Origin: an uncultured Smithella sp.
Lineage (GTDB): Bacteria; Desulfobacterota; Syntrophia; Syntrophales; Smithellaceae
Assembly: GCA_964626775.1 (NCBI GenBank)
Contig: CAZVGQ010000001.1
Span: forward strand, 1-40,117
Direction of reading: 5' to 3'
Length of the DNA: 40,117 bases
Shown here: in pieces, positions 3,057-20,145 of the stretch
How positions within the stretch are numbered: the first letter of the stretch is position 1
Layout of the letters: each line of letters starts with the position of its first letter
Program-made: the position numbers and the translations under genes
The notes under the pieces: generated by a model
What the model was told of the DNA's origin: nothing
The model's database searches: none
Seen by the model: the letters and a program-made list of their open reading frames with translations, nothing else

Positions 3057-3086
3057 AATATACAGAAGAAAACAGGGGCAAGTCAA
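3057..3086 (-). promoter_or_regulatory. candidate sigma70 promoter for the AOR-ADH gene (TTGACT-N18-TATATT on the minus strand)
   Basis: The reverse complement of 3081-3086 is TTGACT and that of 3057-3062 is TATATT, with an 18-nt spacer. It lies downstream of the abfD terminator and ~40 nt upstream of the start codon. Confidence 0.3.
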
Positions 3087-3164
3087 TGAAATAATAGGCT
3101 GAGGGGCTATTAGGCTGAAGGCCGAAGACTAAAGGATAAAGTAAAAGTTTTTAAAAGAGAAACG

Positions 3165-3200
3165 GGTACTTCCGCCGGATTTTTGTCCAGCGGAAGTACC
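3165..3200 (-). terminator. Rho-independent terminator after abfD
   Basis: An 11-bp perfect stem, GGTACTTCCGC (3165-3175) pairing with GCGGAAGTACC (3190-3200), with a 14-nt loop. On the minus strand it is followed by the T-rich CGTTTCTCTTTTAAAAACTTTT. It sits 8 nt after the abfD stop. Confidence 0.6.
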
Positions 3201-3207
3201 GGGGAAA

Positions 3208-4668: not shown

Positions 4669-4869
4669 TAGTTTCCTCCTGGCGTTGCGGCTTTGATCGA
4701 GCCGTCTGTTGTTTGATGGTTTGTTTTGTAATTTGGCCACTCCTTGTGGGGATGTCAACCAACGATCGCGGCCGAATCAGGGAACGCTCTCGATAATCTG
4801 GCCACCTGATTACCTAAAGGTCATGCGAGGTGGTGCGAGGTTACAAGGGTGTTCCCTGCGCTCACTTTC

Positions 4870-6051
4870 CTACAACATTTCAATAATAAAAGCCTGGCCG
4901 GGGCCGCCGCTGGCACAAAGCGCCGCGCAGCCGAATTTCTTGCCGCGGCGTCTGAGTTCGCCCATCATGGTGACGATCAGCCGGGCGCCCGTCGCACCGA
5001 CCGGATGGCCCATGCTGATGCCCGAGCCTACGGCGTTGACGTTCTCCAGGGAAATCTTCAACTCGCGGTTGCAGCCGATGACCTGGGCGGCAAAGGCTTC
5101 GTTCAATTCAAAATAATCAATGTTTTCCAGCTTCATCTTTGCAAATTTCAGAGCATTTTTGACGGCCGGGACCACGCCCATGCCCATGATGCGGGGCTCG
5201 ACGGAGCCGGGGGCGGAAGCCACCACCCGGGCGATGGGTTTCACCCCCAGTTCTTTGGCTTTCTCGGCTGCCATCATGATCAGGCAGGAACCCGCGTCAT
5301 TCAAGCCGGACGCGTTGCCGGCGGTGACCGTGCCGTCTTTTTTGAAAACGGGCTTGAGTTTGCTTAAAGACTCCATGCTGGTGTCCGCCCGGGGATGCTC
5401 GTCTCTTTCGAACAGGGCCGGCCCTTTTTTTGTTTTGATTTCCACCGGAACGATTTCATCCTTGAACCAGCCTTTTTCAATGGCCGCGCAGGCTCTCTGA
5501 TGGCTCATCAATGCCCATTCATCCTGTTCCTGCCGGGATATGCCGTACTGGTCGGCGATGTTGTCGGCCGTAATGCCCATGTGGTAGCCCAGAAGCGCGT
5601 CCACCAGGCCACCGATCATCAAGCTGTCCTGGATTCTTTCGCCGTCGTTGAGGCGGTACCCCTTGCGGGCGCCGAACAGCAGATACGGAGCGTTGCTCAT
5701 GCTTTCAATGCCGACGACCGCGCCGATGTCGACTTTGCCCAGCATGATTTCCTGGGAAAGCAGCTCCGCGCCTCGCATGGAAGAACAGCACTGCTGGTGA
5801 ACCGTGAAAGCAAAAGATTCTACCGGCAGCTCCGCACCGAGCGCGATGTGACGGGCGCTGTTTCCCGGCGCCCCGGCCTGGTTGCACTGGCCCGCTACGA
5901 CTTCCTGAATCAGGTTTTTATCGATGCCGGCCTTCGCAATGCCGCCTTTTAGCGCCGCGATTCCCAATTGAATGGGGCTGAATCCCGACAGAGACCCCAT
6001 GTAATCTCCAATAGCCGTTCTGGCTCCGCTGACAATCACCACTTCTCTCAT
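4870..6051 (-). CDS. acetyl-CoA C-acetyltransferase (thiolase)
   Basis: MREVVIVSGARTAIGDYMGSL N-terminus, with NEAFAAQ, GHPVGATG and CASGGPGQA C-terminal thiolase motifs. The start is ATG 6051, downstream of GAGAGAGG. Confidence 0.9.
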   Translation of the reverse strand: MREVVIVSGARTAIGDYMGSLSGFSPIQLGIAALKGGIAKAGIDKNLIQEVVAGQCNQAGAPGNSARHIALGAELPVESFAFTVHQQCCSSMRGAELLSQEIMLGKVDIGAVVGIESMSNAPYLLFGARKGYRLNDGERIQDSLMIGGLVDALLGYHMGITADNIADQYGISRQEQDEWALMSHQRACAAIEKGWFKDEIVPVEIKTKKGPALFERDEHPRADTSMESLSKLKPVFKKDGTVTAGNASGLNDAGSCLIMMAAEKAKELGVKPIARVVASAPGSVEPRIMGMGVVPAVKNALKFAKMKLENIDYFELNEAFAAQVIGCNRELKISLENVNAVGSGISMGHPVGATGARLIVTMMGELRRRGKKFGCAALCASGGPGQAFIIEML

Positions 6052-6437
6052 GATTTTGACCTCTCTCAATTTTATTTTTTGCGCTTTGGAAATAAGCGTT
6101 AATACACGTTTTGAACCACCCGATACCGCGGCAGTCCATCGCTTCTGACCAATAACTTACAAAAGTCTCTTTTCAAAATATTCGTGCTCTTACCAATTAT
6201 TATTTTATGTGGCAAGTCCTTATTAACGAATAGACCTAAAAGCGCTGAAAGAAGAACCGCATAGTAATCATTATGTAATAACAAAGGGATACGTATTACG
6301 TCCGTTTGTTTTGCAGGCGAATATTGAACATGGATAAATTGTGTATTTGTTTTTTCAATTAGGCAAATCTTTTCAGTGAAGATCCGTTCCTGCCTTGATC
6401 AAAGATATAGGGATCGGGGGTAAGTCTGAATACATTT

Positions 6438-7550
6438 TTACAACAGGCTCGCAAATCCACGGATATCGTTAATGGTTGCCAAGTACACCTCTGGCATCGC
6501 GGTTCTAAACATGCAATCACCGATGTGGCATGTGCCGTTTACCGTACGGCCGACCGCCTTGACGGAAGCGTGCAATAATTTGCGATAGTAAGCCAGTCCT
6601 TCATCTCGGAGAGGGCAGAGTTCATTGACGGATATGACGTGCGGCGGGAGACCGATCAGGTCTTCCTTTGCGGCGAAGTAAGGCCAGCACAGGGGGTTGT
6701 GGTTGTTGGACCCGCCGGGATCATAGACTGAAGCCAAGACGCTGCTCAGGGCATTATTGACAAAGTACAGGTCATTTTCCGTCAGAGACGGAAGGTTTTC
6801 AGTCTGCTGGGATGGTTCCCAGGCATACGCGCCATAGATATACGGCGCCATGGCATAAACGCCGTTAATGATCTGCAGGAGTCCATCTCGTTTGGCTTTC
6901 AACGCTGTCGCCAGGGCGAGATTTGCCCCTCCTGAGTCTCCGGAAATCACTATCTTGGAAAGGCCAAGCCGCTTGCGGTTGGCATGGAGCCACGCCAGCG
7001 CGCTGGTGCAGTCGTCCAGTCCGCTGGGAAATGGATGCGGACCCAAAATCCCCGCCGCATTGCGGAATTCAACCCCGACGGCAACCATACCGGCCGCTGC
7101 GAGGTGATCTCGCCATTGTTGATACAGGGGACCGGCAGCCTGCAACATAACCATTGCCCCGCCGTGCAAATGGAGAATGCAGGGCAATGGTTTTTTTATG
7201 TGATCAGGTTCGTGGATGTAAAGATGCAAGGAATGACCATCAATCCCTGTGATGGTTTCGGTTGTCCGCACCACCGTGGTGATCTCCGGCGCGTCCTTCA
7301 CCAACGCCGCAAAAAAGGCCTCAAAACCGGTTTCCGCCGCTGCACAGAAATGGAGCTTGTCGGCAAGGGTAGAATCCGGTCGGACAGGAGGCGCGGGCGG
7401 AAAGGTATCTAATCCGAATGGCGCCAGCGCAGCGACCATGCGCGGATCGGAACGGGGGTCCTGCCGGAGATCACTCGCCGGATTACCCAGGCGCCCCGGT
7501 AAGACCATGTTACGCCTTTTTCCGTTGGTTTCGACGTTTATCGGATGCAA
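6438..7550 (-). CDS. alpha/beta-fold carboxylesterase, hormone-sensitive-lipase type (family IV)
   Basis: An HGG oxyanion motif (LHLHGGAMVM), a GDSGG nucleophile elbow (ISGDSGGANLA) and no signal peptide. The TTG start at 7550 is preceded by AAGGAG. Confidence 0.8.
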   Translation of the reverse strand: MHPINVETNGKRRNMVLPGRLGNPASDLRQDPRSDPRMVAALAPFGLDTFPPAPPVRPDSTLADKLHFCAAAETGFEAFFAALVKDAPEITTVVRTTETITGIDGHSLHLYIHEPDHIKKPLPCILHLHGGAMVMLQAAGPLYQQWRDHLAAAGMVAVGVEFRNAAGILGPHPFPSGLDDCTSALAWLHANRKRLGLSKIVISGDSGGANLALATALKAKRDGLLQIINGVYAMAPYIYGAYAWEPSQQTENLPSLTENDLYFVNNALSSVLASVYDPGGSNNHNPLCWPYFAAKEDLIGLPPHVISVNELCPLRDEGLAYYRKLLHASVKAVGRTVNGTCHIGDCMFRTAMPEVYLATINDIRGFASLL

Positions 7551-7574
7551 GGGGATTCTCCTTTTGTTGTTACG

Positions 7575-8846
7575 TCAATCTAGGATTGCCTGATACACCG
7601 CATTGCGCAAAATTTTACGGTCATAAAGCCGCTGGGCCGGTTCCTGAATCATAAAAATAACGAAGAGCTCTTTTTGAGGATCAACCCAGAAACTGGTGCC
7701 GGCCAATCCGTACCAGTAATAATCTCCTGCGCTTCCCGGCCAGGGTTCTTTACCGTCCTGAAGCCGGACGGCGACGCCCATTCCGTAGCCATAACCGGCG
7801 CCCGGCAAGTAAAGAGGACCGGGTTTGATTTCGGGCCCTAGTTGATTGGTTGTCATCTGTTCTATCATTTTGGGTTCGAGCAGTCGAACACCGTCAAGCT
7901 GTCCTTTGTTGAGCATCATTTGCAAAAAGCGGGCGTAGTCGGCCGCCGTGGAGACCATCCCCGCGCCGCCGGAGAGCCAGGTCGGCGCTGTGCTGACGTT
8001 AATCAGAAAAGGAACCTTTCCTGTTTTAGGATCTTTTTGTCCTTGGGCCAGGCGGTTCAGTCTGTCCGGCTGTACGTAGAATGCGGAATCCGTCATTTTA
8101 AGAGGACGGGTAATTCGTTCCTCGACAAAACGGTCCAGAGGTATTCCGGAAACGATTTCAATGACGCGGCCCAGAATATCCGTTGAAAGGCTGTATTCCC
8201 AGGTGGTGCCAGGCTCGTGGGCCAGCGGCAGTTTGCTCAGCTTTGCGGCAATATCCTGGAGATTCTGGTTGGGCATTTCCACGCCCGCCTTGATGTAAAG
8301 CGATTTCGTTGCGGATTTTCCAAGGAATCCGTAAGTTAATCCGGATGTATGTCTCAGCAGATCGAGAATCGTCATGGGTTTGGTCGCGGGTTTTTCGATG
8401 CAGACCGGATTGCTGCTGGCGTCCTTGGATTCCTCGCAGACCTTGAGGTCGGCGAAGGCAGGGATAAATTTGGACACCGGGTCCGAAAGCGTCATTTTGC
8501 CTTCCTGAACCAGCATCAGGGCGCCCACCGTCACAACAGGCTTCGTCATGGAGTAAATGCGGAAAATGGAGTCCTTCTGCATGGCCGACTTATTTTCTTT
8601 ATCCCGCATGCCGAAACTCTCAAAGTAAGCGATTTTACCGCGTCTTGCGACCAGAACCACGGCCCCGGGCAGTTTTTCCACCTGAACATCCGCCGCGACC
8701 GTCTCCGTGATGCGGTTGAGTTTTTCAGATGATAAGCCCACGCTTTCCGGCTTGACAGCGGAAAGATTGCCTGCGCACCCCGCTGTCATGTAAACCAAAA
8801 CGGCAGTCAGGATGACCTTTAACCAGAAACGTTTGATCGTTTTCAT
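7575..8846 (-). CDS. beta-lactamase-fold serine hydrolase (family VIII esterase / class C-like), predicted lipoprotein
   Basis: An S-x-x-K motif (IYSMTKPV). The N-terminal signal peptide has a lipobox-like sequence, VLVYMTAGC. The start overlaps the upstream stop (ATGA). Confidence 0.8.
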   Translation of the reverse strand: MKTIKRFWLKVILTAVLVYMTAGCAGNLSAVKPESVGLSSEKLNRITETVAADVQVEKLPGAVVLVARRGKIAYFESFGMRDKENKSAMQKDSIFRIYSMTKPVVTVGALMLVQEGKMTLSDPVSKFIPAFADLKVCEESKDASSNPVCIEKPATKPMTILDLLRHTSGLTYGFLGKSATKSLYIKAGVEMPNQNLQDIAAKLSKLPLAHEPGTTWEYSLSTDILGRVIEIVSGIPLDRFVEERITRPLKMTDSAFYVQPDRLNRLAQGQKDPKTGKVPFLINVSTAPTWLSGGAGMVSTAADYARFLQMMLNKGQLDGVRLLEPKMIEQMTTNQLGPEIKPGPLYLPGAGYGYGMGVAVRLQDGKEPWPGSAGDYYWYGLAGTSFWVDPQKELFVIFMIQEPAQRLYDRKILRNAVYQAILD

Positions 8847-9652
8847 ATTTTCTCCTTTACCGATTGTAAAAACGCCAGAACGGCTTGATTGAACGGTTCA
8901 CTGTCTTCGATAAAAAAACAATGCCTCAGGGCTGGAAACATTTTCAGATGCGCATGAGGCATCAGCTCTTTTAAAATCACGGAATTTTGCGGCGGAATGA
9001 GCGGATCATCCTCTCCGGACAAAATCAGTGTCGGCGCTTTGACCAAGGAGATGCGGTTGACCGTATCATGCTTCTGGCAGGCGTTGAACTGTTGTACAAA
9101 CGCCTCCGCCGGCTGGTACCAGCGCATGGAAAGCTCGCTGAAGATCCTGACCTCCTCAGGGTGGTTGCGGATAAATCGATCGGAGAAAAAAATATCCATA
9201 TTCTTTTGAAGGATTTCCTCCGGGGTCAGCCCTTGTATATCCGCAAATTTTTCCGCCCGGTCTGCGCTCATGGTCACGGCGCGGGTCCCGCCGGCGCCTG
9301 TGGATACCAGCGTCAGACTGTCGACCATGTGTGGATGGCTAATGGCCAGCTCCTGGGCGATATAACCTCCCATGGAATAACCGAGAATGTGAGCGTGTTT
9401 AATGCCCAGAGAGCGCATCAATCCGGCCGTATCATCGGCAAATTGCTCGATGCTGTATTCACCCGCCGGTTTGTCGGTTCGCCCGGACCCGCGATTATCG
9501 AACACGATCACCTGGTAATGCGCCGACAGATCCGGCAATTGTTTGTACCACCATTCAATGTTGCGGCGAATGCCCATGATGAGCAACAGGGGTTCGCCGC
9601 TCCCGTGAATTTCGTAATATATATTGATCCCGTTGACATTTTGTTGGGGCAT
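8843..9652 (-). CDS. alpha/beta hydrolase (esterase or C-C hydrolase type)
   Basis: NGINIYYEIHGSGEPLLLIMG and a GYSMGG nucleophile elbow. I chose the start at ATG 9652, 2 nt after the upstream gene's TAA. The longer ORF would overlap that gene. Confidence 0.8.
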   Translation of the reverse strand: MPQQNVNGINIYYEIHGSGEPLLLIMGIRRNIEWWYKQLPDLSAHYQVIVFDNRGSGRTDKPAGEYSIEQFADDTAGLMRSLGIKHAHILGYSMGGYIAQELAISHPHMVDSLTLVSTGAGGTRAVTMSADRAEKFADIQGLTPEEILQKNMDIFFSDRFIRNHPEEVRIFSELSMRWYQPAEAFVQQFNACQKHDTVNRISLVKAPTLILSGEDDPLIPPQNSVILKELMPHAHLKMFPALRHCFFIEDSEPFNQAVLAFLQSVKEKI

Positions 9653-9653
9653 T

Positions 9654-10892
9654 TTAGTCCTCGATTTTGATCCAGACTTTTTTGTTGTTGCTTTTCGCCA
9701 GTTTTTTGTCCTTCTCAAATTCCTGCTGTGTTTTTTGCCACCAGAAGAATTCCTGAGGAACGGTGAATTTTCCGTTTTTGACCATGGTGACCCTGGAGGT
9801 CTGCATGAAGCGCCCCTTCTCCGTCAGCCCGTAGTTTTCCAGAACAAATTTATCGCCCGTTTGCGGGAAGGCTTTGGGAAACGCGGCGCGGATGGCATGA
9901 ACATCCGTTGCCGTTCCCGCGATGGTCATGGCTTTGGCCAGAGCATGAACGGCGCCATAGTTGGTCAGAACGTCGTAGGTATAGGGTCTTTTGTAGCTGG
10001 CGCTATAGGATTTACCGAACGTTTTGCTGGCGGGAACATCGATCATCGACGGCGGGGCCACACCGATGGTTCCTTCCATCAGTTTGACGTCCTTCAAAAT
10101 CGAGGCGATGATTTCCGGTTTGGCTTGCTCCATCAGGACAAAATTTCCTTTAAATCCCATGTTTCTGGCCTGTTCAATCACCAGCGCGGTCGGCGCCGTC
10201 GGTCCACCGGCCACAATGATATCGGGTTTCGTCGCCATGATGGCTGTCAGTTGAGACGAGAAATCCGTTTCCGTATAGTAATTTGCCGGTTTGTCGAGTG
10301 TGATCACACCGCCTTTCTTTTCCCAGTAAGCTTTGAATGCACCCTTCCATTCGTCGCCATAACCACCCACGGTGACCAGCAATCCGGCGCTCCGTGCTCC
10401 CTGCGCCCAGGCCATCTCGGCTTCAGGGTAAACATAACTTAAAAGTGTTGTGGTGATAATCAATCGCAAGCTGTTGGGAATTTGGACGGCCCTGGGGCTG
10501 GTCGTATACCCCATCACCAGAAATTCGTTGTTTTTTTCTTCGTTGACCTTCAACAGGGCGGAGATCGTAATAAAGGCCGGATTGAACACAGCAACGGCGC
10601 CGTTGGACCGCAAACGTCGTGCATTATTGACCGTCTGCACGGGGTCAATACGATCATCCATTCTTTCGAGCTTAAACGTATGAGGCACGCCGGAAACCTT
10701 AAAACCTCCGGCAGAATTAATTGCATTGACGGCCATTTCAATGCCGTTGAAACAATCCTGACCATATTCCGCCGCCGGACCGCTCAAAGGTCCTGTGAAT
10801 CCGATCAGCACTTCTTTGGCATGGCTTGCCGGAGCTGCAAAGAGCATAACAAAAAAACCCAACAACACAATGACTCCCTTTAATTTTCTCAT
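9654..10892 (-). CDS. ABC transporter substrate-binding protein (type 1 periplasmic-binding fold, Liv/Bra-like)
   Basis: A signal peptide (MRKLKGVIVLLGFFVMLFAAPASHA) followed by IGFTGPLSGPAAEYGQD, typical of Leu/Ile/Val-binding-protein family members. Confidence 0.85.
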   Translation of the reverse strand: MRKLKGVIVLLGFFVMLFAAPASHAKEVLIGFTGPLSGPAAEYGQDCFNGIEMAVNAINSAGGFKVSGVPHTFKLERMDDRIDPVQTVNNARRLRSNGAVAVFNPAFITISALLKVNEEKNNEFLVMGYTTSPRAVQIPNSLRLIITTTLLSYVYPEAEMAWAQGARSAGLLVTVGGYGDEWKGAFKAYWEKKGGVITLDKPANYYTETDFSSQLTAIMATKPDIIVAGGPTAPTALVIEQARNMGFKGNFVLMEQAKPEIIASILKDVKLMEGTIGVAPPSMIDVPASKTFGKSYSASYKRPYTYDVLTNYGAVHALAKAMTIAGTATDVHAIRAAFPKAFPQTGDKFVLENYGLTEKGRFMQTSRVTMVKNGKFTVPQEFFWWQKTQQEFEKDKKLAKSNNKKVWIKIED

Positions 10893-10950
10893 AATCCTTT
10901 CCTTTCTTTTGAAATGTAATGTTTGTTAACCCGTTTGAATCTGCAAAATG

Positions 10951-12246
10951 CTATTGTCTGTAAATCTCTTTAAATTCCCGCTTTAAGTCTTCTCTGAATT
11001 CAGGAGCCGCGATTTTTGACAGGGCTTCCACGCGTTCCCTGACGGTTTTCCCCCAAATGTTGGCAATTCCATATTCCGTGACAATGTAATCTACTTCGGC
11101 ACGCGTCGTGGTAACAGCCTGGCCTCTTTCAAAGGCTGCCACAATCCTCGATTTTGTGCCGGACGCCGCAGTAGCCGGCAAAGCAATCACACTCCTTCCC
11201 CCTGATGAAATTCTACAGCCTCTCACAAAATCAACTTGTCCTCCAACACCGCTATACTGAACGGGACCGATGGCATCTGCCGCAACCTGTCCCAACAGGT
11301 CAACGGCCACCGCTGAATTAACGGAAAACATGTTGTCGTTTCTTCCAATAACGTAAGGATTGTTGGTATAATCAACAGGATGCATCTCAATCATGGAATT
11401 CTCATGCATCCACTCATAGAGCTGGTCGCTCCCCAGGGCGAATGTAAAAATCATTCTGCCGCGATGGAAGTTCTTTTTCCGGCAGGTGATGATCCCTTTT
11501 TCAACGAGATGCATCACCCCGTCAGAAATCATTTCCGAATGGATGCCGAGGTCATGCTTTCCTTCTATAAATCTCAATATGGCATCCGGAATCTGGCCAA
11601 ATCCCAGCTGCAGACAGTCGCCGCTTTTAATTAATGTGGCCACATTAGACGCAATAGCTTCTTCCACCGGCCCAATGTTGGGCGACGGAAGCGGCAACAT
11701 GGGACGATCACTGACAATAAAGTGACCGATCTGTGAAACATGCAGAAAAGTGTCTCCATAGGTTTTCGGCATGAAGGGCGAAACTTCCGCAATAACCTTT
11801 TTGGCATTTAAAGCCGCGGCCAGGGAATAATCCACGGAGATGCCCAGGCTGACGTTCCCCACTTTATCGGGCAGCGATACCGAAATCAGGGCAACGTCAA
11901 TCGGCAGAACGCCTCTACGAATTAATGAGGGATAGTCGCTGAGGAATGCCGCCGTGAAATCAGCACGATCCTCTCTTATGGCCTGCCTTTGCGTAGGTCC
12001 GGCAAACATGGCATTATGTCGAAAAGAATTCTGATATTCAGGACGACAATATAAACTTTTGCCATAAGATACCATGTGCACGATTTCTACGTTCTGGAGT
12101 TCATGAGCTCGTTTGACCATCGCGTCATAAACCGGTTCAGGCGTGCCTCCGCCGGTTCCTGAAATGATTCGATCCCCCGACTTGATCAAATGTGCTGCTT
12201 CTTCTACGGTGATTGCTCGTTCACGGATGTATTGGTTCCAGTCCAT
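10951..12246 (-). CDS. acetyl-CoA hydrolase/transferase family protein, 4-hydroxybutyrate CoA-transferase-like
   Basis: Typical length (~431 aa) and motifs: GIHSEMISDG (candidate catalytic Glu), SGVGGQVDF (GxGGxxD) and YIVTEYGIANIWGK. ATG 12246 lies 7 nt after AGGAG. Confidence 0.8.
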   Translation of the reverse strand: MDWNQYIRERAITVEEAAHLIKSGDRIISGTGGGTPEPVYDAMVKRAHELQNVEIVHMVSYGKSLYCRPEYQNSFRHNAMFAGPTQRQAIREDRADFTAAFLSDYPSLIRRGVLPIDVALISVSLPDKVGNVSLGISVDYSLAAALNAKKVIAEVSPFMPKTYGDTFLHVSQIGHFIVSDRPMLPLPSPNIGPVEEAIASNVATLIKSGDCLQLGFGQIPDAILRFIEGKHDLGIHSEMISDGVMHLVEKGIITCRKKNFHRGRMIFTFALGSDQLYEWMHENSMIEMHPVDYTNNPYVIGRNDNMFSVNSAVAVDLLGQVAADAIGPVQYSGVGGQVDFVRGCRISSGGRSVIALPATAASGTKSRIVAAFERGQAVTTTRAEVDYIVTEYGIANIWGKTVRERVEALSKIAAPEFREDLKREFKEIYRQ

Positions 12247-12272
12247 CACTAACTCCTATTGGCCTTTTCTTG

Positions 12273-12983
12273 TTAAACACCCAGGTATGTCTTCATGATA
12301 TCCGGCCGCCTTTTTAGTTCCAGAACACTGCCCTGCCACAGTACATGACCCTTTTCGAGGATGTAGACGCGGTCTGATACATTAAGCGCGAAACTGGAAT
12401 TTTGTTCGGAGAGAAGAATCGTCAACCCTTCCTTCTTGAGTTCCATAATTTGATCTTCAATCATCTGGGTGACCATGGGCGCGAGACCTTCGGAGGGTTC
12501 GTCGAGCAGCAGCAATAAAGGATTTCCCATCAAAGTACGGGCAATCGTGAGCATCTGCTGTTCGCCTCCTGAAAGCGTGCCTGCCCATTGGCCGCTGCGC
12601 GTTTCCAGAACCGGGAACAGGCGATGCACTTTCTCCATTGTCCAGTTGAGGCTCTTTCTGCTTTTCGGACTGTCCTTCATGGCGATTTCGAGGTTTTCAC
12701 GTACGGTCAGATTGGAAAATATTTCCCGATCTTCAGGCACAAATCCCACGCCGAGGCGGGCGATTTTGAAGGGCGGCTTGCTGGTGATTTCAGTTCCCAG
12801 GAACTTGATGTGGCCGGACTGTGGATGCGTAAGCCCCATAATGCTGCGAAAAGTTGTTGTCTTTCCCACACCATTGCGCCCCAGCAGACACACCGTCTCA
12901 CCTTCATGAACCTCCATGGAAACATTGAATAAAATATGACTCAGATCATAGTAAGTGTTGATCTCACGAATTTCTAATAGCAT
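12273..12983 (-). CDS. ABC transporter ATP-binding protein (LivF-type)
   Basis: Walker A GRNGVGKTT, signature LSGGEQQ and Walker B LLLLDEP. Its start overlaps the upstream stop by 1 nt. Confidence 0.9.
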   Translation of the reverse strand: MLLEIREINTYYDLSHILFNVSMEVHEGETVCLLGRNGVGKTTTFRSIMGLTHPQSGHIKFLGTEITSKPPFKIARLGVGFVPEDREIFSNLTVRENLEIAMKDSPKSRKSLNWTMEKVHRLFPVLETRSGQWAGTLSGGEQQMLTIARTLMGNPLLLLLDEPSEGLAPMVTQMIEDQIMELKKEGLTILLSEQNSSFALNVSDRVYILEKGHVLWQGSVLELKRRPDIMKTYLGV

Positions 12984-13726
12984 CAGTGATTTCCCTCCCC
13001 CAGATAAATTCTCTGCACTTCACTGTTATTGCGGACGCTCTGTGGCGTTCCGCTGAAAATCACCGCGCCTTGATGCAAAACAATGATTTTGTCGGATATC
13101 CCGAAGACGACCTTCATATCGTGTTCCACAAAGATTAGTGTCAATCCCCGTTCCCTGACTAGTTTCTGAATGAGTTGAGTGGTTTCTTCCGTTTCCTGCG
13201 GGCTCATCCCCTGTGTGGGCTCATCGAGCAACAATAAGGAAGGATTCGTTGCCAGTGCAATGCCCATTTCCAGACGCTTCTGATCCCCATGCGCCAGAAG
13301 ACCTCCTTTGAAATGCTTTTTGTTCAGGAGTCCCACACTGTCCAGAATGGCTTCCGTTTCAGAAACGACCATTTTTTTGGCATTGGAAAAAAGCAGGTGA
13401 CTTTTACCCGTGGCGGAAAGGATGGCCACTTGAATGTTTTGAAAGGTAGTCAGCTTGGAAAAAATGTTGATGCGCTGGAACGAACGGCCTATCCCCATGC
13501 GCGAAATCAAATGAGGCGCAATGCCGGTGATGTTCCTGCCACGAAAAAAAACGTTTCCGGAATCAGGAACAATATGTCCGGTGAGGAGATTGAACAAGGT
13601 TGTTTTTCCCGCCCCGTTGGGTCCGATGACGGACACGAGTTCTTTTTCCTGAATTTGGAAGCTGATGTCGTTGGTCGCGGTGATGCCGCCGAATTTCTTG
13701 ATCAGATTGTTCGCTTCAAAAATCAT
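12983..13726 (-). CDS. ABC transporter ATP-binding protein (LivG-type)
   Basis: Walker A GPNGAGKTT and Walker B LLLLDEP. The start MIFEANNLIKKFGG is at 13726, in an ATGA overlap with the permease stop. Confidence 0.9.
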   Translation of the reverse strand: MIFEANNLIKKFGGITATNDISFQIQEKELVSVIGPNGAGKTTLFNLLTGHIVPDSGNVFFRGRNITGIAPHLISRMGIGRSFQRINIFSKLTTFQNIQVAILSATGKSHLLFSNAKKMVVSETEAILDSVGLLNKKHFKGGLLAHGDQKRLEMGIALATNPSLLLLDEPTQGMSPQETEETTQLIQKLVRERGLTLIFVEHDMKVVFGISDKIIVLHQGAVIFSGTPQSVRNNSEVQRIYLGEGNH

Positions 13727-14703
13727 AGTCCGTTTTCTTCCTTTCCGCCACTGAACCGGTCCGCCGCCCAAGCCAGCTTTTCATGAATAAAGCCGACGAT
13801 CCCGCTGCGCATGAATAAGACCAAAAACGCGATGATGATCCCCAGATAAAACATCCAGTAAGTTGTTCCTTTGGCAATGGTTTTGCTCAGGAAGATATAA
13901 ACCACGGAACCAACGATGGGTCCGGCAAAGCTGTGCAGTCCGCCGAGAAGACAGACGACAAGCATATCGGTGGATTTTGCCCAGTGTGCATAATCGGGAA
14001 AGACGCTGCCCGCAAAAACGCAGTAGAGCGAACCGGCGATGCCCAGAAAAATGCTGGAGATGACAAAGATGGCAAGCTGATAGCGGCGAACGGCCACGGA
14101 AATAAATTCCGTGCGCAGCGGGTTTTCGCGAATGGACTGAATGGTGATGCCAAAAGGAGAATGGACGATCTTCCAGATGATAAAAATGCAAATGAGCGTA
14201 ACGGCCAGAATGAAATAGTAAGACTGAATGATGGAGGACACATAGTCGGGAATGGGAACGCCGATGATGCCGTTGTCGCCGTTGGTGAAATCGTACCACT
14301 GAAAAATCACAGTCCAGATGATTTGGGCAAAGGCCAGCGTCAAAAGCGCGAAGTAAACCGCATTGCGGCGGACGCAAAACCATCCCACCGCAACGCCGAC
14401 GAGTCCCGCCATGACCGGCGCCGCAAGAAACGCGGCGGGCAAAGGCATGCCGTAACGCGACAGAAGAATCGCGGTCGTGTATGCGCCCACGCCGTAAAGT
14501 CCCGCGGGCCCGAAGGACACCATCCCGCCGTAGCCGACGATCAAATTCAGCGCGCAGCCGGCCAGCGCCATGATCAGCATTTCTATGATTAGACTGATCC
14601 AGCTTTTGGAGACGACCAATGGCGCTGCGATCAACAAAACAATGACGGCCAAAACCAGCCAGATACCGGCCGTGCGTAATTTGGCAAATAACGGTGTATA
14701 CAA
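13723..14703 (-). CDS. branched-chain-amino-acid-type ABC permease (LivM-type)
   Basis: A polytopic membrane protein with LivM-like length and composition. It sits between a LivH-type gene and a LivG-type gene. TTG start. Confidence 0.85.
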   Translation of the reverse strand: MYTPLFAKLRTAGIWLVLAVIVLLIAAPLVVSKSWISLIIEMLIMALAGCALNLIVGYGGMVSFGPAGLYGVGAYTTAILLSRYGMPLPAAFLAAPVMAGLVGVAVGWFCVRRNAVYFALLTLAFAQIIWTVIFQWYDFTNGDNGIIGVPIPDYVSSIIQSYYFILAVTLICIFIIWKIVHSPFGITIQSIRENPLRTEFISVAVRRYQLAIFVISSIFLGIAGSLYCVFAGSVFPDYAHWAKSTDMLVVCLLGGLHSFAGPIVGSVVYIFLSKTIAKGTTYWMFYLGIIIAFLVLFMRSGIVGFIHEKLAWAADRFSGGKEENGL

Positions 14704-14714
14704 TTGATTTCCCC

Positions 14715-15593
14715 CTATTCCGGCTTACCCATGAGACCCCATGGACGCACGATTAAAATGATGATCATGAGCATGAAGGGAAAAGCCACGGCCAGTTTCG
14801 GCATCACCAGAATCCCAAAAGCATTGAGAAAACCCAGAATGACCGCACCGATAAAAGCGCCAGGCAGGCTTCCCAGACCGCCGATGACAACGATAATGAA
14901 GCATTCAATAATCACGTGCATATCCGCGCCCAGCGCCACAACCGACATGGGGGGCATCAAAGCACCGGCGAGCCCCGCAAGATAACAGCCCAGCATGAAA
15001 ACGCCGGTATAAACCCGGGGCACATTGATGCCCAGCGCGTTGGCCATATCGCGGTTCAGCGTGACGGCCCGTACAATCCGACCTAATTCGGTATAGCGCA
15101 TCAAAGCGAGCAAAGCGGCAAAAATGGCCATTCCGCAAATGATCAGGAAGATGTTGTAAATCGGGAATGACATACCCAGAAAGGCAATGCTTCCGGTCAG
15201 CGGCCAGGGGACGGCTATGGTTTTAAAGGAAACACCAAAAACGTATTTTAAAACGTCGCCAAAAATCAAAATCAGCGCGAAGGTCAATATGTACTGGTAG
15301 AGCATGTCCTGCGAATAGATGCGCCGAAGCAGCAGGACTTCAACAAATCCTCCCAGTACGGCCACCGTGATGGGGGCAAGAAGCAGAGCCCACCAGAAAG
15401 AACCGCCGGCGTTGGCAAACATGTTTGTGAAGGCAAAACACAAAAAGCTTCCCATCATGAAAAAGGTCCCGTGCGCCAGGTTCAGAATTTTCATGGTTCC
15501 GAAGATGAGGGATAACCCCGCTGCAATAAGAAACAAGACAAGCCCGACGCTGATTCCACTGATAAATTGACTGACAAACGACTCAATCGTCAC
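14715..15593 (-). CDS. branched-chain-amino-acid-type ABC permease (LivH-type)
   Basis: A LivH-like N-terminus (SGISVGLVLFLIAAGLSLIFGTMKILNLAHG). The GTG start is preceded by AAGGAGG. Confidence 0.85.
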   Translation of the reverse strand: MTIESFVSQFISGISVGLVLFLIAAGLSLIFGTMKILNLAHGTFFMMGSFLCFAFTNMFANAGGSFWWALLLAPITVAVLGGFVEVLLLRRIYSQDMLYQYILTFALILIFGDVLKYVFGVSFKTIAVPWPLTGSIAFLGMSFPIYNIFLIICGMAIFAALLALMRYTELGRIVRAVTLNRDMANALGINVPRVYTGVFMLGCYLAGLAGALMPPMSVVALGADMHVIIECFIIVVIGGLGSLPGAFIGAVILGFLNAFGILVMPKLAVAFPFMLMIIILIVRPWGLMGKPE

Positions 15594-15664
15594 TGACCCA
15601 ACCTCCTTCTGGCACAGGGCCCGGGATATGAATCTTTACCCCGGGCCCCGCAGGTCATCTGTAA

Positions 15665-16897
15665 TTATTTCGCGGCCCGGATTTTCTTGATCTGATCCAG
15701 GGTATGATATCCTTCTTCGCCGATCGGCGTGACCTTCACGACATGTGGGAAAGGAAGTTTCGAAGAATAATCCATAATGCCGTACCAGGTGGGCATCATC
15801 GCCTGATGGTCATAGGCCCGGATTTGGACTTTGCCGATCAGGGTATTCAGCGTCATGCCTTCCAATGCTTTGATGATTTTTTCAGTGTCGACCGCGCCGG
15901 CCTTTTCAATGCCTGCTTTCAAAGCGTAAATGCTGTTGTAATGATTCATGGCGCCATAAGAGGGCCATTGGCCGGTCTTGCTCTTGTATTTTTCCACAAA
16001 CGCTTTGCTTCGGGGATTGTCGATGGTCCAGAAGGGGTATCTGGTCGTGGCCAGCGCGCCCTTGGGAAAAGGACCGCCTTTGGTCACGGTGTACCAGGAT
16101 TCGATATCGCCCGCACAGGGCTGCACGGCCAGCATTTGGTCATAAAGACCGAAAGCCGCCGCCTGCTTGGTAAAGGCAAGTTCTCCACCGCCATAAACCG
16201 CTGCAAGGTAAAAAGCATCGGCCCCGGAATTTTTGATTTTGTTGATGTAAGCGGTATAATCGGTTGTTCCTAACGGGGCCCACAGTTCATCAATGATCTT
16301 GGCGTCGGGAACCAGTTCCAGGTATTTTTCCTTAAATTCTTTAAGCGCAGTTTTGCCGGTTTCATAGTCCCATCCGAGACTGATGATCTTCTTTACTTTT
16401 TTGGTCTTGGCCAGCGCGATTGCCGGAGCGTAGCCCCAGTATACGACGGAATTCGTCGCGATGCGGAAAATGTAGGGATGGAATACCTCTTCCGTCATCC
16501 GGGAAGACTGGGCATTGCTGGGCATGAAGATAATTTTTTCTTTTTTTGCGTAACTGGAAACAGCCATCCCTACTGCACTGCTGACCGTTCCAGTTAAGAA
16601 ATCCGCTTTTTCACTGATCACCAGATCCTTGGCCTCGCGCATGCCGACTTCAGGATTGGCTTTGTCGTCGCGTGTGATCATCTTGATAGGCCTGCCTAGA
16701 ATGCCGCCTGTGGCATTGATTTCCTCAATGGCGATACTGCCTCCTGCCTCCGAGCTGATTCCGTACATAGATAGAGCGCCACTCATGGAATGAATATGCC
16801 CGATAATAATAGGTTCCTTTTCTGCCGACTGCGACGAAAACACTAGGCCAAATACCGACAGCATAGCAACCGCCCATACAATGAGATGTTTTTTCAT
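15665..16897 (-). CDS. ABC transporter substrate-binding protein (type 1 periplasmic-binding fold)
   Basis: A signal peptide (MKKHLIVWAVAMLSVFGLVFSSQSA) and EEINATGGILGRPIK. GGAGG lies upstream of the ATG. This is the first gene of the apparent operon. Confidence 0.85.
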   Translation of the reverse strand: MKKHLIVWAVAMLSVFGLVFSSQSAEKEPIIIGHIHSMSGALSMYGISSEAGGSIAIEEINATGGILGRPIKMITRDDKANPEVGMREAKDLVISEKADFLTGTVSSAVGMAVSSYAKKEKIIFMPSNAQSSRMTEEVFHPYIFRIATNSVVYWGYAPAIALAKTKKVKKIISLGWDYETGKTALKEFKEKYLELVPDAKIIDELWAPLGTTDYTAYINKIKNSGADAFYLAAVYGGGELAFTKQAAAFGLYDQMLAVQPCAGDIESWYTVTKGGPFPKGALATTRYPFWTIDNPRSKAFVEKYKSKTGQWPSYGAMNHYNSIYALKAGIEKAGAVDTEKIIKALEGMTLNTLIGKVQIRAYDHQAMMPTWYGIMDYSSKLPFPHVVKVTPIGEEGYHTLDQIKKIRAAK

Positions 16898-17066
16898 GGT
16901 TTATTCCTCCGTTTTGAAGATGCTTGTTCATTGGTCAAAAAGGCAACCAATGACGGCACTAAAATATATAATTAAAATTGCTAGACAATATGGATGATGT
17001 TTATTAATAACTTACTTTATTTTGTAATATAATGAGGACGATAGTCGATGTTTAATGCATGATATA

Positions 17067-17092
17067 TTACATAAACTTACATAATAATGTAA
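17067..17092. promoter_or_regulatory. phased TTACAT repeats (candidate operator) in the AT-rich region upstream of the transporter operon
   Basis: TTACAT occurs at 17067-17072 and 17077-17082. Its inverse, ATGTAA, occurs at 17087-17092. All three are at 10-bp spacing and lie inside a 9-bp inverted repeat, ATATTACAT (17064-17072) / ATGTAATAT (17087-17095). Confidence 0.3.
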
Positions 17093-17166
17093 TATTTTGC
17101 TCTGGGCATGGGGAGCTTATGAGTTGGTTGGAAAATTCGATGAGCAGGTTGTTTTAAGAAACTAGC

Positions 17167-18423
17167 CTAGGAAATATTGGACAAATGGGATTTTAGATTG
17201 GCTCTCTTTTTGTTCAAGCCTAATTTGTTACGTAATCGATAACGGTGAATATCAACAGCACCCTTGGAGATGTGCATGATATCCGCTATTTCTTTGCTGC
17301 TCTTGCCTTCTTTGATGAAATTGGCAATCATGATTTCCTTGTTGGTCAACTTCATGTATTTAGAGGAAAGTCTTTCGGAGAACGGAGAAATGATATCTTT
17401 GAGGTTGGATTCAAGGAGGTTGACATAAGCCAGGATTCTTTCATCGATCTTGCTTTTCTTCACAATGTCAATATACGGCAGGGCAAGTTCCTGGATGTTG
17501 GATAATATTTTTTCTTCCAGTTCCGCTTTATCATCCTCGCGTTGTTTGAGAAGAACTCGCAGAGCCGCATTCAATTCCTGCAGATTACCCGATTTGATCT
17601 TCAAAGATTTTTCCGCTTCCTTTAAAGCGGTCACGTCCGTGAGAGATGCGACGCTTTTTTTCGTGCCTGGAATCATGCTGCACGTCACCATCACGTTTTT
17701 GACGTTTCCACGACTGTCGATCAGATCATGCTCATAATTGCGAGGGGCGGCATTAGGGTCAATGCGCCTTAGCCTGTGATATTCCGTGATCATGGGGATG
17801 TATTCCTTGACCGTGTAATCCGACCACTTCTTCTTTCCTTCCCATTCCTGTTTAGAATAGCCGGTCAATTTTTCAAATTCAGAATTAATGAGAGAGATGG
17901 TCGTGTCTTCTTCTATGATAATGGTCGCAGTTCCCGTTGTGTCAAATATGGTGCGATAAAATATTTCTGTTTCCTGCAGTTTTTTTTCAGCTTTTTTCCT
18001 TTCGGTGATATCCATTGCATTGCCTAGGATCGCATGCTTTTTCTTAAACAATATCGATGTCGCCGTTCCAATGAGCCAGCAGATTTCGTTGTGTTTATTG
18101 ATGATTCTGTATTCGAAAGGGGATGTGCGTTTTCCACTCAGCATTTCACGCATATTGCGTTTTACATCGGCGCGATCCTCGGGATGGATGATGCTGTTTG
18201 CTTTTTTCCCCAGGAGTTCCTTTTGCGTGTAGCCGGTATATTGGGCTGCCAGGGGATTGATCCAAATATATTTTCCATCCTGTACCACATAAATACCGGC
18301 CAAAGCGTTTTCGAAAATGATTTGGTGCATATTTTCGTCTTCAACCGGTTTATAGGGAGAGGGGGCTTGACCTGCTGCCCGTTGAGAGCCTGTACGGTCT
18401 TTGGATTTAATTTTTTCATCCAT
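17167..18423 (-). CDS. PAS-PAS-LuxR family transcriptional regulator
   Basis: Two PAS/PAC-like modules (…FENALAGIYVV…DITERKKAE… and …YRTIFDTTGTATIII…LTDVTALKEAE…). A C-terminal LuxR-type helix-turn-helix follows (LTNKEIMIANFIKEGKSSKEIADIMHISKGAVDIHRYRLRNKLG). I prefer ATG 18423 over the TTG at 18441. Confidence 0.85.
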   Translation of the reverse strand: MDEKIKSKDRTGSQRAAGQAPSPYKPVEDENMHQIIFENALAGIYVVQDGKYIWINPLAAQYTGYTQKELLGKKANSIIHPEDRADVKRNMREMLSGKRTSPFEYRIINKHNEICWLIGTATSILFKKKHAILGNAMDITERKKAEKKLQETEIFYRTIFDTTGTATIIIEEDTTISLINSEFEKLTGYSKQEWEGKKKWSDYTVKEYIPMITEYHRLRRIDPNAAPRNYEHDLIDSRGNVKNVMVTCSMIPGTKKSVASLTDVTALKEAEKSLKIKSGNLQELNAALRVLLKQREDDKAELEEKILSNIQELALPYIDIVKKSKIDERILAYVNLLESNLKDIISPFSERLSSKYMKLTNKEIMIANFIKEGKSSKEIADIMHISKGAVDIHRYRLRNKLGLNKKRANLKSHLSNIS

Positions 18424-18508
18424 GTGCAACCCCTGAGGCAATATTTTTACCAGGGCAGAAGATTCGTCGGTCCTCCAGATTCAATAATGATTTCTTTCTC
18501 ATATATTT

Positions 18509-18537
18509 ATTATATGAAGAACAAATGGATGTGTCAA
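18509..18537 (-). promoter_or_regulatory. consensus sigma70 promoter (TTGACA-N17-TATAAT on the minus strand) for the PAS-LuxR regulator
   Basis: The reverse complement of 18532-18537 is TTGACA and that of 18509-18514 is TATAAT, with a 17-nt spacer. It lies ~85 nt upstream of ATG 18423. Confidence 0.6.
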
Positions 18538-18633
18538 CGGGATACTGCTAAAGGCCGTCCGAATGGTCGGCATCATCGATGGAGAAACTGTGCGAATAAC
18601 GTTGTTTTTTAAGATGTTGAAGCCCATAAAGAA

Positions 18634-18665
18634 ACCCTCGCCCTTCCGCGCGGATGGGCGAGGGT
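18634..18665 (-). terminator. Rho-independent terminator after the interrupted substrate-binding-protein gene
   Basis: A 10-bp stem, ACCCTCGCCC (18634-18643) pairing with GGGCGAGGGT (18656-18665), with a 12-nt loop. On the minus strand it is followed by TTCTTTAT. Confidence 0.55.
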
Positions 18666-18687
18666 AATGTTCAAGGCTGAGACTATT

Positions 18688-19935: not shown

Positions 19936-20115
19936 GACTTGCCTCCTCTTTCTGACGACGGACGATGAACCGTTGAAACGGCTTTTTCACCGGGGTTCCC
20001 GGCGTCTTTATATTTTTTTGTTTCGCGGTGTAAGGGGTCATACTATTGGGAATACGGCCTGTCAATGAAAAGCTGTCCAGTCCCGGCGGGCGCCGTTCTG
20101 CTTTCCCGTTTGTTT

Positions 20116-20145
20116 TTTACAAATTTCCGCGCGGCTTTATATAAA
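20116..20145 (+). promoter_or_regulatory. candidate sigma70 promoter at the 5' end of the long leader (TTTACA, then TATATAAA)
   Basis: TTTACA at 20116-20121. The -10 region TATATAAA at 20138-20145 gives hexamer options at 16-18 nt spacing. Confidence 0.35.

Follow-up and report, generated by a model that had tools for sequence, protein, structure and literature searches.

The ten genes located at positions 6438-16897 on the minus strand of a 40,117-nucleotide stretch of DNA from an uncultured Smithella sp. (GenBank assembly GCA_964626775.1, contig CAZVGQ010000001.1, positions 1 to 40,117; hereafter the window) belong to an acquired accessory island, the genome being of the Smithellaceae type (Syntrophales). 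Six of these genes form a conserved core encoding a Liv-type importer and a CoA-transferase of the AbfT type. The four remaining genes, which encode a second binding protein and three hydrolases, are an accessory block on this core. We propose that the island could act as a feeder module for the host genes located downstream, which encode a thiolase, a 4-hydroxybutyryl-CoA dehydratase (AbfD), and a fusion of an aldehyde:ferredoxin oxidoreductase (AFOR) with an Fe-alcohol dehydrogenase (Fe-ADH). Taken as a whole, with the identity of the acid and the participation of the esterases included, the model is tentative and we grant it slightly less than an even chance; the part concerning the core is considerably more likely than the part concerning the esterases.

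The ten open reading frames (ORFs) are co-directional and arranged head to tail in the order SBP1-LivH-LivM-LivG-LivF-CoA-transferase-SBP2-ABH-family VIII-HSL, in which SBP1 and SBP2 are Liv-type periplasmic binding proteins, ABH is an alpha/beta hydrolase, and the last two are a family VIII carboxylesterase and an HSL/brefeldin-A-esterase-type enzyme. The most plausible start codon was retained for each gene, with a ribosome-binding site of the GGAG or AGGA type upstream. All ten proteins were assigned by Pfam. The core comprises SBP1 (15665-16897; Peripla_BP_6, 8e-72), the LivH-type (14715-15593; BPD_transp_2, 3e-35) and LivM-type (13723-14703; BPD_transp_2, 2e-32) permeases, the LivG-type (12983-13726; ABC_tran and BCA_ABC_TP_C) and LivF-type (12273-12983; ABC_tran, 8e-33) ATPases, and the AbfT-type (family I) CoA-transferase (10951-12246; AcetylCoA_hydro and AcetylCoA_hyd_C). 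The accessory block comprises SBP2 (9654-10892; Peripla_BP_6, 2e-37), ABH (8843-9652; Abhydrolase_1, 5e-33), the family VIII enzyme, a predicted lipoprotein (7575-8846; Pfam Beta-lactamase), and the HSL-type enzyme (6438-7550; Abhydrolase_3), all on the minus strand. The junctions, in the order of the genes, are a gap of 71 nt between SBP1 and LivH, the widest of the unit, a gap of 11 nt, an ATGA overlap (13723-13726) in which the LivG start codon at 13726 overlaps the LivM stop codon, a 1-nt overlap between LivG and LivF (position 12983), gaps of 26 nt and 58 nt on either side of the CoA-transferase gene, a 1-nt spacer between SBP2 and ABH (9654/9652), an ATGA overlap between ABH and the family VIII gene (8843-8846), and a gap of 24 nt upstream of the HSL gene. 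A preliminary description of this DNA, made from the sequence alone, had reported ten co-directional genes with gaps of at most 71 nt and several overlaps, and the ORF coordinates bear this out. The gene order that it implied has to be corrected: SBP2 follows the CoA-transferase and precedes the hydrolases.

The island extends over 14,071 bp (6091-20161, minus strand) and contains, in addition to the ten genes, a gene for a PAS-LuxR regulator and a pseudogene paralogous to SBP2. A 362-kb contig of the nearest related genome (L019) harbors 272 bp in place of these 14,071 bp. Comparison by blastn indicated that both flanks are colinear with L019, positions 1-6090 and 20162-26865 of the window being 89.8% and 94.0% identical, respectively. 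The thiolase is 88% identical to that of L019, and the homology with L019 stops 39 nt upstream of the thiolase ATG. The AFOR/Fe-ADH fusion of L019 is 96% identical to that of the window, and proteins approximately 95% identical to this fusion carry a Smithellaceae label. The island has a GC content of 0.499, as compared to 0.552 in the rest of the window, and a mean GC content at third codon positions of 0.60, as compared to 0.68 (Mann-Whitney p = 0.003). Its proteins are nearest to those of Desulfatitalea (Desulfobacterales), whereas the flanks are nearest to Smithellaceae. A search for signs of mobility revealed no integrase or transposase ORF, tRNA, boundary repeat, Rfam match, or plasmid match.

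The thiolase-AbfD-AFOR/Fe-ADH genes are also kept, without the island, in a more distant locus (L021). In the latter locus, the divergent upstream slot (787-6590) is occupied by a two-component system (a PAS kinase and a LuxR protein), by an acyl-CoA ligase gene, and by the gene for another family I CoA-transferase, with 30% identity. Activation or uptake modules vary at this site, upstream of thiolase-AbfD, a different one being present in each Smithellaceae-type genome seen. In L019, the slot (1-6184) contains family III transferase genes together with a Liv system; in the window, it contains the island and a Liv system. The direction of the change, insertion of the island or deletion, is not fully settled. 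The nucleotide identity of the thiolase gene to that of the window is 84% for L019 and 79% for another locus, L010, which is more distant than L019 in its thiolase and yet bears the island beside the thiolase gene, implying either gain and loss or spread through recombination in the flanks.

A close relative of the core is an uncharacterized operon of the cultured species Desulfatitalea tepidiphila (L005; GCA_001293685.1, contig BCAG01000006.1), in which the genes for a binding protein, LivHMGF, and the CoA-transferase occur in the same order. The six proteins are 81-87% identical to those of the window (SBP1, 87%; LivH, 87%; LivM, 84%; LivG, 81%; LivF, 84%; CoA-transferase, 82%). In contrast to the window, the D. 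tepidiphila operon has its own abfD gene 58 nt after the transferase gene, followed by a convergent crotonase-family gene and a PAS-LuxR regulator gene, the latter thus located on the other side of the operon and in convergent orientation. Four metagenome contigs (L011 to L014) carry the same six-gene core. The sequence encoding the N-terminus of AbfD (57-63% identity) directly follows the transferase gene in two of them (L011 and L014), and nothing identifiable was found downstream of the core in the other two (L012 and L013). These gene orders were taken from look-ups of exact proteins; a scan of a genome collection with the CoA-transferase, limited to species representatives that exclude the genome of the window, recovered two loci, with 70% and 35% identity. 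The link to the neighboring abfD cluster made in the preliminary description is thus real and firmer than was then held. The core order is kept in these loci. The full ten-gene order is not: the hydrolases are absent there and partly deleted in another relative, L010.

The closest solved relatives of the CoA-transferase are all named 4-hydroxybutyrate CoA-transferase (E values of 4e-133 to 2e-113), including PDB entries 3eh7 (4e-133), 9vag (2e-123), 3gk7 (3e-117), and 3d3u (4e-116). Position 238 is a glutamate, within the motif GIHSEM; this is the number that we take to be that of the catalytic glutamate of the Clostridium aminobutyricum enzyme, a correspondence of numbering and not of residue-level alignment. 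By its sequence, the protein is an AbfT-type 4-hydroxybutyrate CoA-transferase, this activity being predicted, and the earlier proposal that the acid is activated by CoA transfer agrees with its Pfam and PDB matches. Beyond the island, the first host gene encodes an acetoacetyl-CoA thiolase (4870-6051, minus strand; Thiolase_N and Thiolase_C; TIGR01930, 411 bits for a cut-off of 240.55 bits). The next gene encodes AbfD, the 4-hydroxybutyryl-CoA dehydratase/vinylacetyl-CoA isomerase (3208-4668, minus strand; PDB 1u8v, 9e-233). This protein, which has the HpaB fold, contains the sequences CFQRC and HRQSYGGC, which align with 1u8v and conserve the cluster-ligand motifs (Cys-x3-Cys and His-x6-Cys). 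It is predicted to function as a true 4-hydroxybutyryl-CoA dehydratase, and is 94% identical to AbfD of L019 and 65% identical to that of D. tepidiphila.

The presence of AbfD after the transferase in D. tepidiphila and the location of the host thiolase-AbfD genes downstream from the island, with no terminator-like site in the spacer, indicate that the transported acid is most likely 4-hydroxybutyrate or a very close C4 or C5 acid. The preliminary description had stated that the substrate cannot be read from the sequence; the AbfT-type transferase and the true AbfD allow it to be narrowed. The acid could instead be another short acid (butyrate, crotonate, vinylacetate, 3-hydroxybutyrate, or 5-hydroxyvalerate), the adjacency of AbfD then reflecting general short-chain acyl-CoA metabolism. 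This alternative, which we consider clearly unlikely, is consistent with the top NCBIfam model for the transferase, butyryl-CoA:acetate CoA-transferase, which was matched far under its cut-off (274.6 versus 674.8 bits), with the vinylacetyl-CoA isomerase activity that AbfD also has, as in the molecule name given to PDB 6vjr, and with the fact that the thiolase and the crotonase-family protein are general β-oxidation enzymes. However, the nearest solved transferases are all named for 4-hydroxybutyrate, and the donor-like lineage has, beside its transferase, an AbfD that has no use except with 4-hydroxybutyryl-CoA or vinylacetyl-CoA and would be superfluous for the catabolism of butyrate or crotonate.

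The proposed route resembles the 4-aminobutyrate route of C. aminobutyricum (AbfT, 3gk7; AbfD, 1u8v), since an AbfT-type transferase and a [4Fe-4S]/FAD dehydratase are co-located, the product then passing to a thiolase. It differs by the lack, among the scanned genes of the window, of an aminotransferase and of a stand-alone 4-hydroxybutyrate dehydrogenase, the acid being proposed to come from outside via a Liv-type importer. The window also differs in that the transferase (island) and the dehydratase (host) have different origins and in that esterases are attached.

The importer belongs to the HAAT (Liv-type) group and its set of subunits is complete, comprising a Peripla_BP_6 protein, two BPD_transp_2 permeases, and two ABC ATPases, one of which has a BCA_ABC_TP_C domain; SBP2 is an extra binding protein. 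The same subunit set, with two binding-protein genes per permease pair, is found in the LivJ/LivK-LivHMGF system of Escherichia coli. In contrast to the latter, the system of the window is found in an acyl-CoA pathway setting, not in an amino-acid regulon, and no Liv or Urt equivalog match was obtained, the scores being far under the NCBIfam cut-offs (LivJ-type, 92.5 versus 477 bits; UrtA, 138.8 versus 492.75 bits). Both SBP1 and SBP2 have Sec signal peptides; a protein look-up with the exact sequence of SBP1 returned no record. Glu226 of LivJ holds the amino group of the ligand. Alignment with E. coli LivJ revealed a glutamine at this position both in SBP1 and in its Desulfatitalea orthologue, which fits a ligand lacking an amino group. 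SBP1 therefore does not appear, from its residues, to be an amino-acid binder, and we propose it as a 4-hydroxybutyrate-binding protein.

SBP2 and the three hydrolases were not found in the core loci of D. tepidiphila and L011 to L014. Parts of the block recur in close relatives of the window lineage. A further locus (L018) has the order CoA-transferase-SBP2-ABH-family VIII, with 89-94% identity, and L010 has the order LivF-CoA-transferase-SBP2-ABH, followed by a scar and then by the thiolase gene. The scar (3723-4207 of L010) fuses codons 1-47 of the family VIII gene to codons 253-367 of the HSL gene, in different frames, indicating that the last two hydrolase genes were deleted there. ABH is retained after SBP2 in both loci (87% identity in L010 and 92% in L018). 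SBP2 and the three hydrolases are thus an accessory block on a conserved six-gene core: the single operon of the preliminary description holds in the sense of a tightly coupled unit but not in that of one ancestral operon.

The family VIII enzyme harbors the motifs S99-M-T-K102, Tyr218, and W378-Y-G, the last being a W-x-G sequence in place of the KTG of class C β-lactamases. It is related over its whole length to the carboxylesterase EstU1 (PDB 4ivi, 7e-110), then to esterase 7pp3 (4e-75), and much more distantly to peptidases (1e-12 to 1e-20). The class C β-lactamase model was matched at 56 bits, for a cut-off of 415 bits (bla_class_C), and only over the N-terminal 90 residues. The N-terminus (MKTIKRFWLKVILTAVLVYMTAG followed by C, with the junction YMTAG-C) satisfies the lipoprotein rule, with a basic n-region, a hydrophobic core, and an [AGS]-C pair at residue 24. 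Homologues with 60-62% identity have Sec signal peptides, indicating that the family is exported; the lipobox is present in the window protein and in P0122. ABH and the HSL-type enzyme have no signal peptide, in agreement with the initial claim that only the enzyme with the β-lactamase fold is exported, a localization that remains predicted. The EstU1/EH7-type enzymes (4ivi; PMC9795927; PMC4844572) share with the window enzyme the S-x-x-K, Tyr, and W-x-G motifs; the characterized representatives were obtained through metagenome screens, and no physiological role is known for them. In contrast, the window enzyme is a predicted lipoprotein encoded within a transport and catabolic operon, beside a binding protein.

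ABH contains the motif GYSMGG, with Ser93 as the nucleophile, and its nearest solved relative is the metagenomic esterase Est1 (PDB 6eb3, 2e-54). It scored under all NCBIfam cut-offs, including those for PcaD (145.2 versus 255.85 bits), RutD (115.5 versus 238.5 bits), and the intracellular scl-PHA depolymerase (84.4 versus 300 bits), so that only generic membership of the alpha/beta-hydrolase superfamily can be predicted. All catalytic motifs are kept in ABH and in the family VIII enzyme. The utilization of polyhydroxyalkanoates (PHA) involves an extracellular depolymerase and an intracellular oligomer hydrolase. The window is reminiscent of this logic, as it pairs an exported esterase with cytoplasmic esterases and uptake, ahead of hydroxyacyl-CoA metabolism. 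It differs in that a periplasmic lipoprotein cannot reach a polymer outside the cell and in that none of the three hydrolases reached the cut-off of a PHA-depolymerase model of NCBIfam.

The HSL-type enzyme is related over its whole length to the brefeldin A esterase/Est22/Est25 subgroup (1jkm, 5iq0, 4j7a, and 6z68; E values of 5e-99 to 2e-127), with 6z68 at 2e-127, 4j7a at 1e-118, and 1jkm at 5e-99. It shares with this subgroup the HGG oxyanion motif, at position 129, the GDSGG nucleophile elbow, with Ser206, and a conserved histidine, His342. It differs by the replacement of the catalytic aspartate of the DPLRD sequence by Cys312, which is encoded by a TGC codon at 6617-6615. Five of the six closest solved homologues were compared (6z68, 4j7a, 5iq0, 5iq2, and 5iq3): these have NE[LV]DPLRDEG where the window has NELCPLRDEG. 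Cys312 is offset by +4 from Asp308 of brefeldin A esterase (BFAE), as are Ser206 and His342 from Ser202 and His338, respectively. Among 119 family representatives covering the site (cluster representatives at 50% identity), 108 have an aspartate and none has a cysteine. An aspartate codon needs two base changes to become TGC, and this codon is shared by L002, an independent contig from the same species, and by L010, from a related species. The complete Ser-Asp-His triad, with the aspartate of DPLxD, is therefore lacking; from its residues, the HSL enzyme is non-canonical and may be inactive. The substitution could be the sign of an inactive enzyme, of one working with a dyad, or of new chemistry.

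The motifs quoted for the hydrolases in the preliminary description (GYSMGG, S-x-x-K, a lipoprotein signal, HGG, and GDSGG) are all present. Its description of three serine hydrolases is correct for the nucleophile motifs, found in all three, but the HSL enzyme has no catalytic acid. The three enzymes, which had been called mechanistically distinct, do not represent three folds: the family VIII fold stands apart, but ABH and the HSL enzyme share the alpha/beta-hydrolase fold. Two loci in which an esterase and AbfD might be linked were considered. In the first (L016), which we do not count, a family VIII homologue is located near an HpaB-family gene whose product shares only 38% identity with AbfD, and the ABH of this locus gave no match. 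In the second (L008), an HSL-type esterase follows AbfD, AF_0334, and AbfT; this esterase has canonical HGG, GDSAG, and DPL motifs, is 25% identical to the window HSL enzyme, and is encoded 344 nt after AbfT, so that the support from this locus is weak. A literature search on PDB entries 6EB3, 6Z68, 8TG1, and 3I45 found nothing usable.

These features raise the possibility that the six-gene core alone is the pathway unit, taking up a short acid and activating it with CoA, and that SBP2 and the hydrolases are partly decaying passengers with unrelated roles such as general esterase activity, detoxification, or β-lactam-like hydrolysis. We regard this explanation as somewhat unlikely. It would account for the presence of the core without any hydrolase in Desulfatitalea and in L011 to L014, for the out-of-frame junction of family VIII codons 1-47 to HSL codons 253-367 in L010, for a cysteine at position 312 that is unique with respect to the 119 HSL representatives, and for the nonsense codon in the SBP2 paralogue of the island. 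It is also consistent with the fact that EstU1-type enzymes are known only by promiscuous in vitro activities (PMC9795927; PMC4844572). However, translation of the block is coupled to that of the core (the 1-nt spacer and the ATGA overlap, with the gaps of 58 nt and 24 nt), and its position between the transferase and thiolase-AbfD would entail a transcript in common with them. The SBP2-ABH order is also found in two further relatives, with 87-94% identity, the catalytic motifs of the family VIII enzyme and of ABH are intact, and the family VIII/SBP2 pair is found again on an unrelated 277-kb contig (L015), in which a 56% identical SBP2 homologue directly follows a 62% identical family VIII homologue.

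SBP2 is otherwise rare, since a scan of metagenomes revealed a single match (52% identity), on a short contig (L009) with uninformative neighbors. A third family VIII homologue has a Liv-type system within 5 kb and a further binding protein at a distance of 2.7 kb. The recurring pairing of family VIII enzymes with SBP2-like proteins is suggestive only. The best solved relatives of SBP2 are LivJ and LivK (PDB). All five members of the SBP2 family have an acidic residue (Glu or Asp) at the position of LivJ Glu226, and the family also keeps equivalents of Tyr18, Thr/Ser102, and Tyr150, but not of Tyr202 and Ser79. The alignment of SBP2 with LivJ relies on approximately 25% identity, so that this reading of residues is to be taken as a caution rather than as a finding. 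The uptake of an organic acid by two binding proteins, as first proposed, is thus in line with the Liv-type system, but the ligand of SBP2, with its Glu226-type residue, is perhaps not a plain organic acid.

These residues are one basis for a further alternative, in which the exported family VIII enzyme would be a peptidase or an amidase and SBP2 would import the amino product, possibly 4-aminobutyrate on its way to 4-hydroxybutyrate. We consider this scheme highly improbable. In addition to the acidic residue in five of five SBP2-family members, to the conserved Tyr18, Thr/Ser102, and Tyr150 equivalents, and to LivJ and LivK as the best solved relatives of SBP2, it is in keeping with the name 'CubicO group peptidase' given by JGI to the family VIII homologues, with the β-lactamase/DD-peptidase fold of the enzyme, and with the resemblance of the host Fe-ADH domain to 4-hydroxybutyrate dehydrogenase (232 bits, under the cut-off). 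In contrast, the nearest solved structures are those of carboxylesterases (EstU1 at 7e-110 and 7pp3 at 4e-75), peptidases appearing only at 1e-12 to 1e-20, no aminotransferase gene was detected among the scanned genes of the window, and the alignment with LivJ, at approximately 25% identity, does not preserve Tyr202 and Ser79.

The island encodes a PAS-PAS-LuxR(GerE) one-component regulator (17167-18441, minus strand; Pfam PAS and GerE; 71% identity to the D. tepidiphila protein). Two exact copies of the motif ATATTAC-N8-GTAAGTT are located between this gene and SBP1 (17009-17095, minus strand), 65 nt apart and 115-200 nt upstream of SBP1, and are the only exact matches in the whole window (0.19 expected). 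Exactly two copies, 64 nt apart, are present upstream of SBP1 in each of L005, L006, and L011, the paired ATATTAC-N8-GTAA sites thus being common to the window and D. tepidiphila, and no copy was found in the other 20 loci. This pair is a good candidate for the operator of the PAS-LuxR protein. A perfect sigma-70 consensus (12/12; TTGACA, 17 nt, TATAAT) is located at 18537-18509 on the minus strand, approximately 70 nt upstream of the regulator gene; a perfect match of this kind is uncommon for regulator genes in genomes of the Deltaproteobacteria type.

The HSL and thiolase genes are separated by an AT-rich spacer of 386 nt. As mentioned above, no terminator-like site was detected in this spacer, and the RNA following the HSL stop codon shows no excess of structure over shuffled sequence (z = +1.2). 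Among the terminator-like sites in positions 1-19000, the strongest is a 15-bp GC-rich hairpin located after the AbfD stop codon (3165-3200, minus strand), which is likely to be the end of the transcription unit. Read-through from the ten-gene unit into thiolase-AbfD is thus plausible from these signals.

The arrangement of the genes, their families, the island status, the link between core and AbfD in relatives, and the replacement of Asp by Cys are established from the sequences, whereas the acid, co-transcription with thiolase-AbfD, the functions of SBP1 and SBP2, and any connection of the esterases with 4-hydroxybutyrate are inferred. On these bases, we propose the following mechanism. SBP1-LivHMGF would import 4-hydroxybutyrate, which the AbfT-type transferase would convert to 4-hydroxybutyryl-CoA with acetyl-CoA as the donor. 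Transcription probably continues into the thiolase and AbfD genes, and the PAS-LuxR regulator probably controls the unit via the two ATATTAC-N8-GTAAGTT sites. Host AbfD would dehydrate 4-hydroxybutyryl-CoA to crotonyl-CoA, and β-oxidation and the thiolase would then yield acetyl-CoA. In the periplasm, the family VIII lipoprotein esterase would free a small product, and SBP2 would bind this product and pass it to the same LivHM permease. Such sharing has a precedent in E. coli, whose LivJ and LivK depend on a single permease. In the cytoplasm, the hydrolysis of esterified imports would be completed by ABH and possibly also by the HSL enzyme that lacks the aspartate.

Several observations weigh against this model. 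All ten proteins of the unit scored under every NCBIfam equivalog cut-off. The AbfT-family transferases take several short acids, and the acid could therefore be butyrate, crotonate, vinylacetate, or 5-hydroxyvalerate. AbfD is a gene of the host and not of the donor of the island, so that its coupling to the island is by position only. Common regulation of the ten-gene unit and of thiolase-AbfD was considered and rejected, since the operator motif is absent upstream of the thiolase gene; in addition, the 386-nt spacer contains a weak promoter-like site. The thiolase and AbfD genes may thus be transcribed separately. SBP2 may bind an amino compound or another compound with a polar head, as judged from its residues, pointing away from a hydroxy acid. 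These genomes encode a very large number of Liv-type binding proteins, and the proximity of family VIII enzymes and binding proteins could therefore be due to chance. Finally, the absence of the hydrolases in Desulfatitalea, the deletion in L010, and the lack of the aspartate in the HSL enzyme fit dispensable or decaying passengers. The scheme of the preliminary description, in which an ester or lactone is hydrolyzed to an acid that is then converted to a CoA ester, finds partial support, in the Liv-type importer and the CoA-transferase, but no result supports action of the hydrolases on esters or lactones of 4-hydroxybutyrate. Hydrolysis of hydroxy-acid esters or lactones, the most attractive part of that scheme, is still the least supported.

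In a bolder version of the feeder model, the island would be a transferable add-on enabling syntrophic Smithellaceae to use 4-hydroxybutyrate-yielding esters under methanogenic conditions. We consider this version very unlikely. The candidate substrates would be gamma-butyrolactone, 4-hydroxybutyrate oligoesters from polyesters of the poly(4-hydroxybutyrate) (P4HB) type, and fragments of polyesters based on 1,4-butanediol. The family VIII lipoprotein would cut oligomers, SBP2 and SBP1 would feed dimers and monomers to one permease, the cytoplasmic esterases would finish the hydrolysis, and AbfT, AbfD, the thiolase, and AFOR/Fe-ADH would convert the diol as well as the hydroxy acid to acetyl-CoA.

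The host AFOR/Fe-ADH fusion (169-3018, minus strand; 949 residues) contains the domains AFOR_N, AFOR_C, Fe-ADH, and ADH_Fe_C. The aldehyde:ferredoxin oxidoreductase part is of the tungsten type, and the five-domain architecture of the whole protein is common to all the clusters listed, at least 120 in number, with at least 70% identity (Smithellaceae, Syntrophales). The fusion follows thiolase-AbfD in the three contexts seen, namely the window, L019 (10001-12850), and L021 (10001-12850). Its dehydrogenase domain is nearest to the models of ErcA and of 4-hydroxybutyrate dehydrogenase, both under the cut-off (232 bits for the latter). The fusion could turn an alcohol into an acid in a single protein, for example 1,4-butanediol into 4-hydroxybutyrate, or 4-hydroxybutyrate into succinate. 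A literature search found no paper on such an AFOR-ADH fusion.

The window contains additional genes related to uptake and CoA transfer. A third binding-protein gene of the island, paralogous to SBP2 (18688-19935, minus strand; tblastn, 3e-102, in a single frame; 43% identity to SBP2), is intact except for one in-frame TAA codon at 19734-19732, and is either a recent pseudogene or the product of a sequencing error. It is followed by a GC-rich hairpin with a T-rich tail (18634-18665). Divergently from the island, a host Liv system (20682-28149, plus strand) that is conserved in L019 encodes LivH, LivM, LivG, LivF, two family III CoA-transferases, and a 468-residue binding protein; the paired family III transferases suggest a substrate of the dicarboxylate type. 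Finally, a 632-residue protein encoded at 38007-39905 (plus strand) is a family I acetyl-CoA hydrolase/transferase fused to a C-terminal GNAT domain.

Each protein of the unit belongs to a well-known family, with the reservation that the HSL enzyme lacks the complete triad. Their combination, a Liv importer with two binding proteins, AbfT, and three esterases upstream of a resident AbfD operon, is new in the literature that we searched, which contained no paper on this set of genes, no description of a Liv-type importer or binding protein for 4-hydroxybutyrate, and nothing usable on Smithella with AbfD. The island is ordinary catabolic-island biology and involves no new principle; for specialists, the candidate 4-hydroxybutyrate importer, the family VIII/SBP2 pairing, and the Asp-to-Cys esterase are useful rather than startling. 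If the bolder version involving oligoesters were true, it would provide the first physiological role for family VIII esterases and would define an anaerobic oligoester pathway. If the feeder model itself is true, it provides a named candidate for a Liv-type ABC importer of 4-hydroxybutyrate and places a family VIII esterase, exported and with a binding protein encoded next to it, in a physiological context, these enzymes being known mainly through metagenome activity screens. It would then also show a Desulfobacterales-like cassette for transport and CoA transfer docked upstream of the resident dehydratase operon of a syntroph, and hence a pathway assembled from parts of mixed origins.

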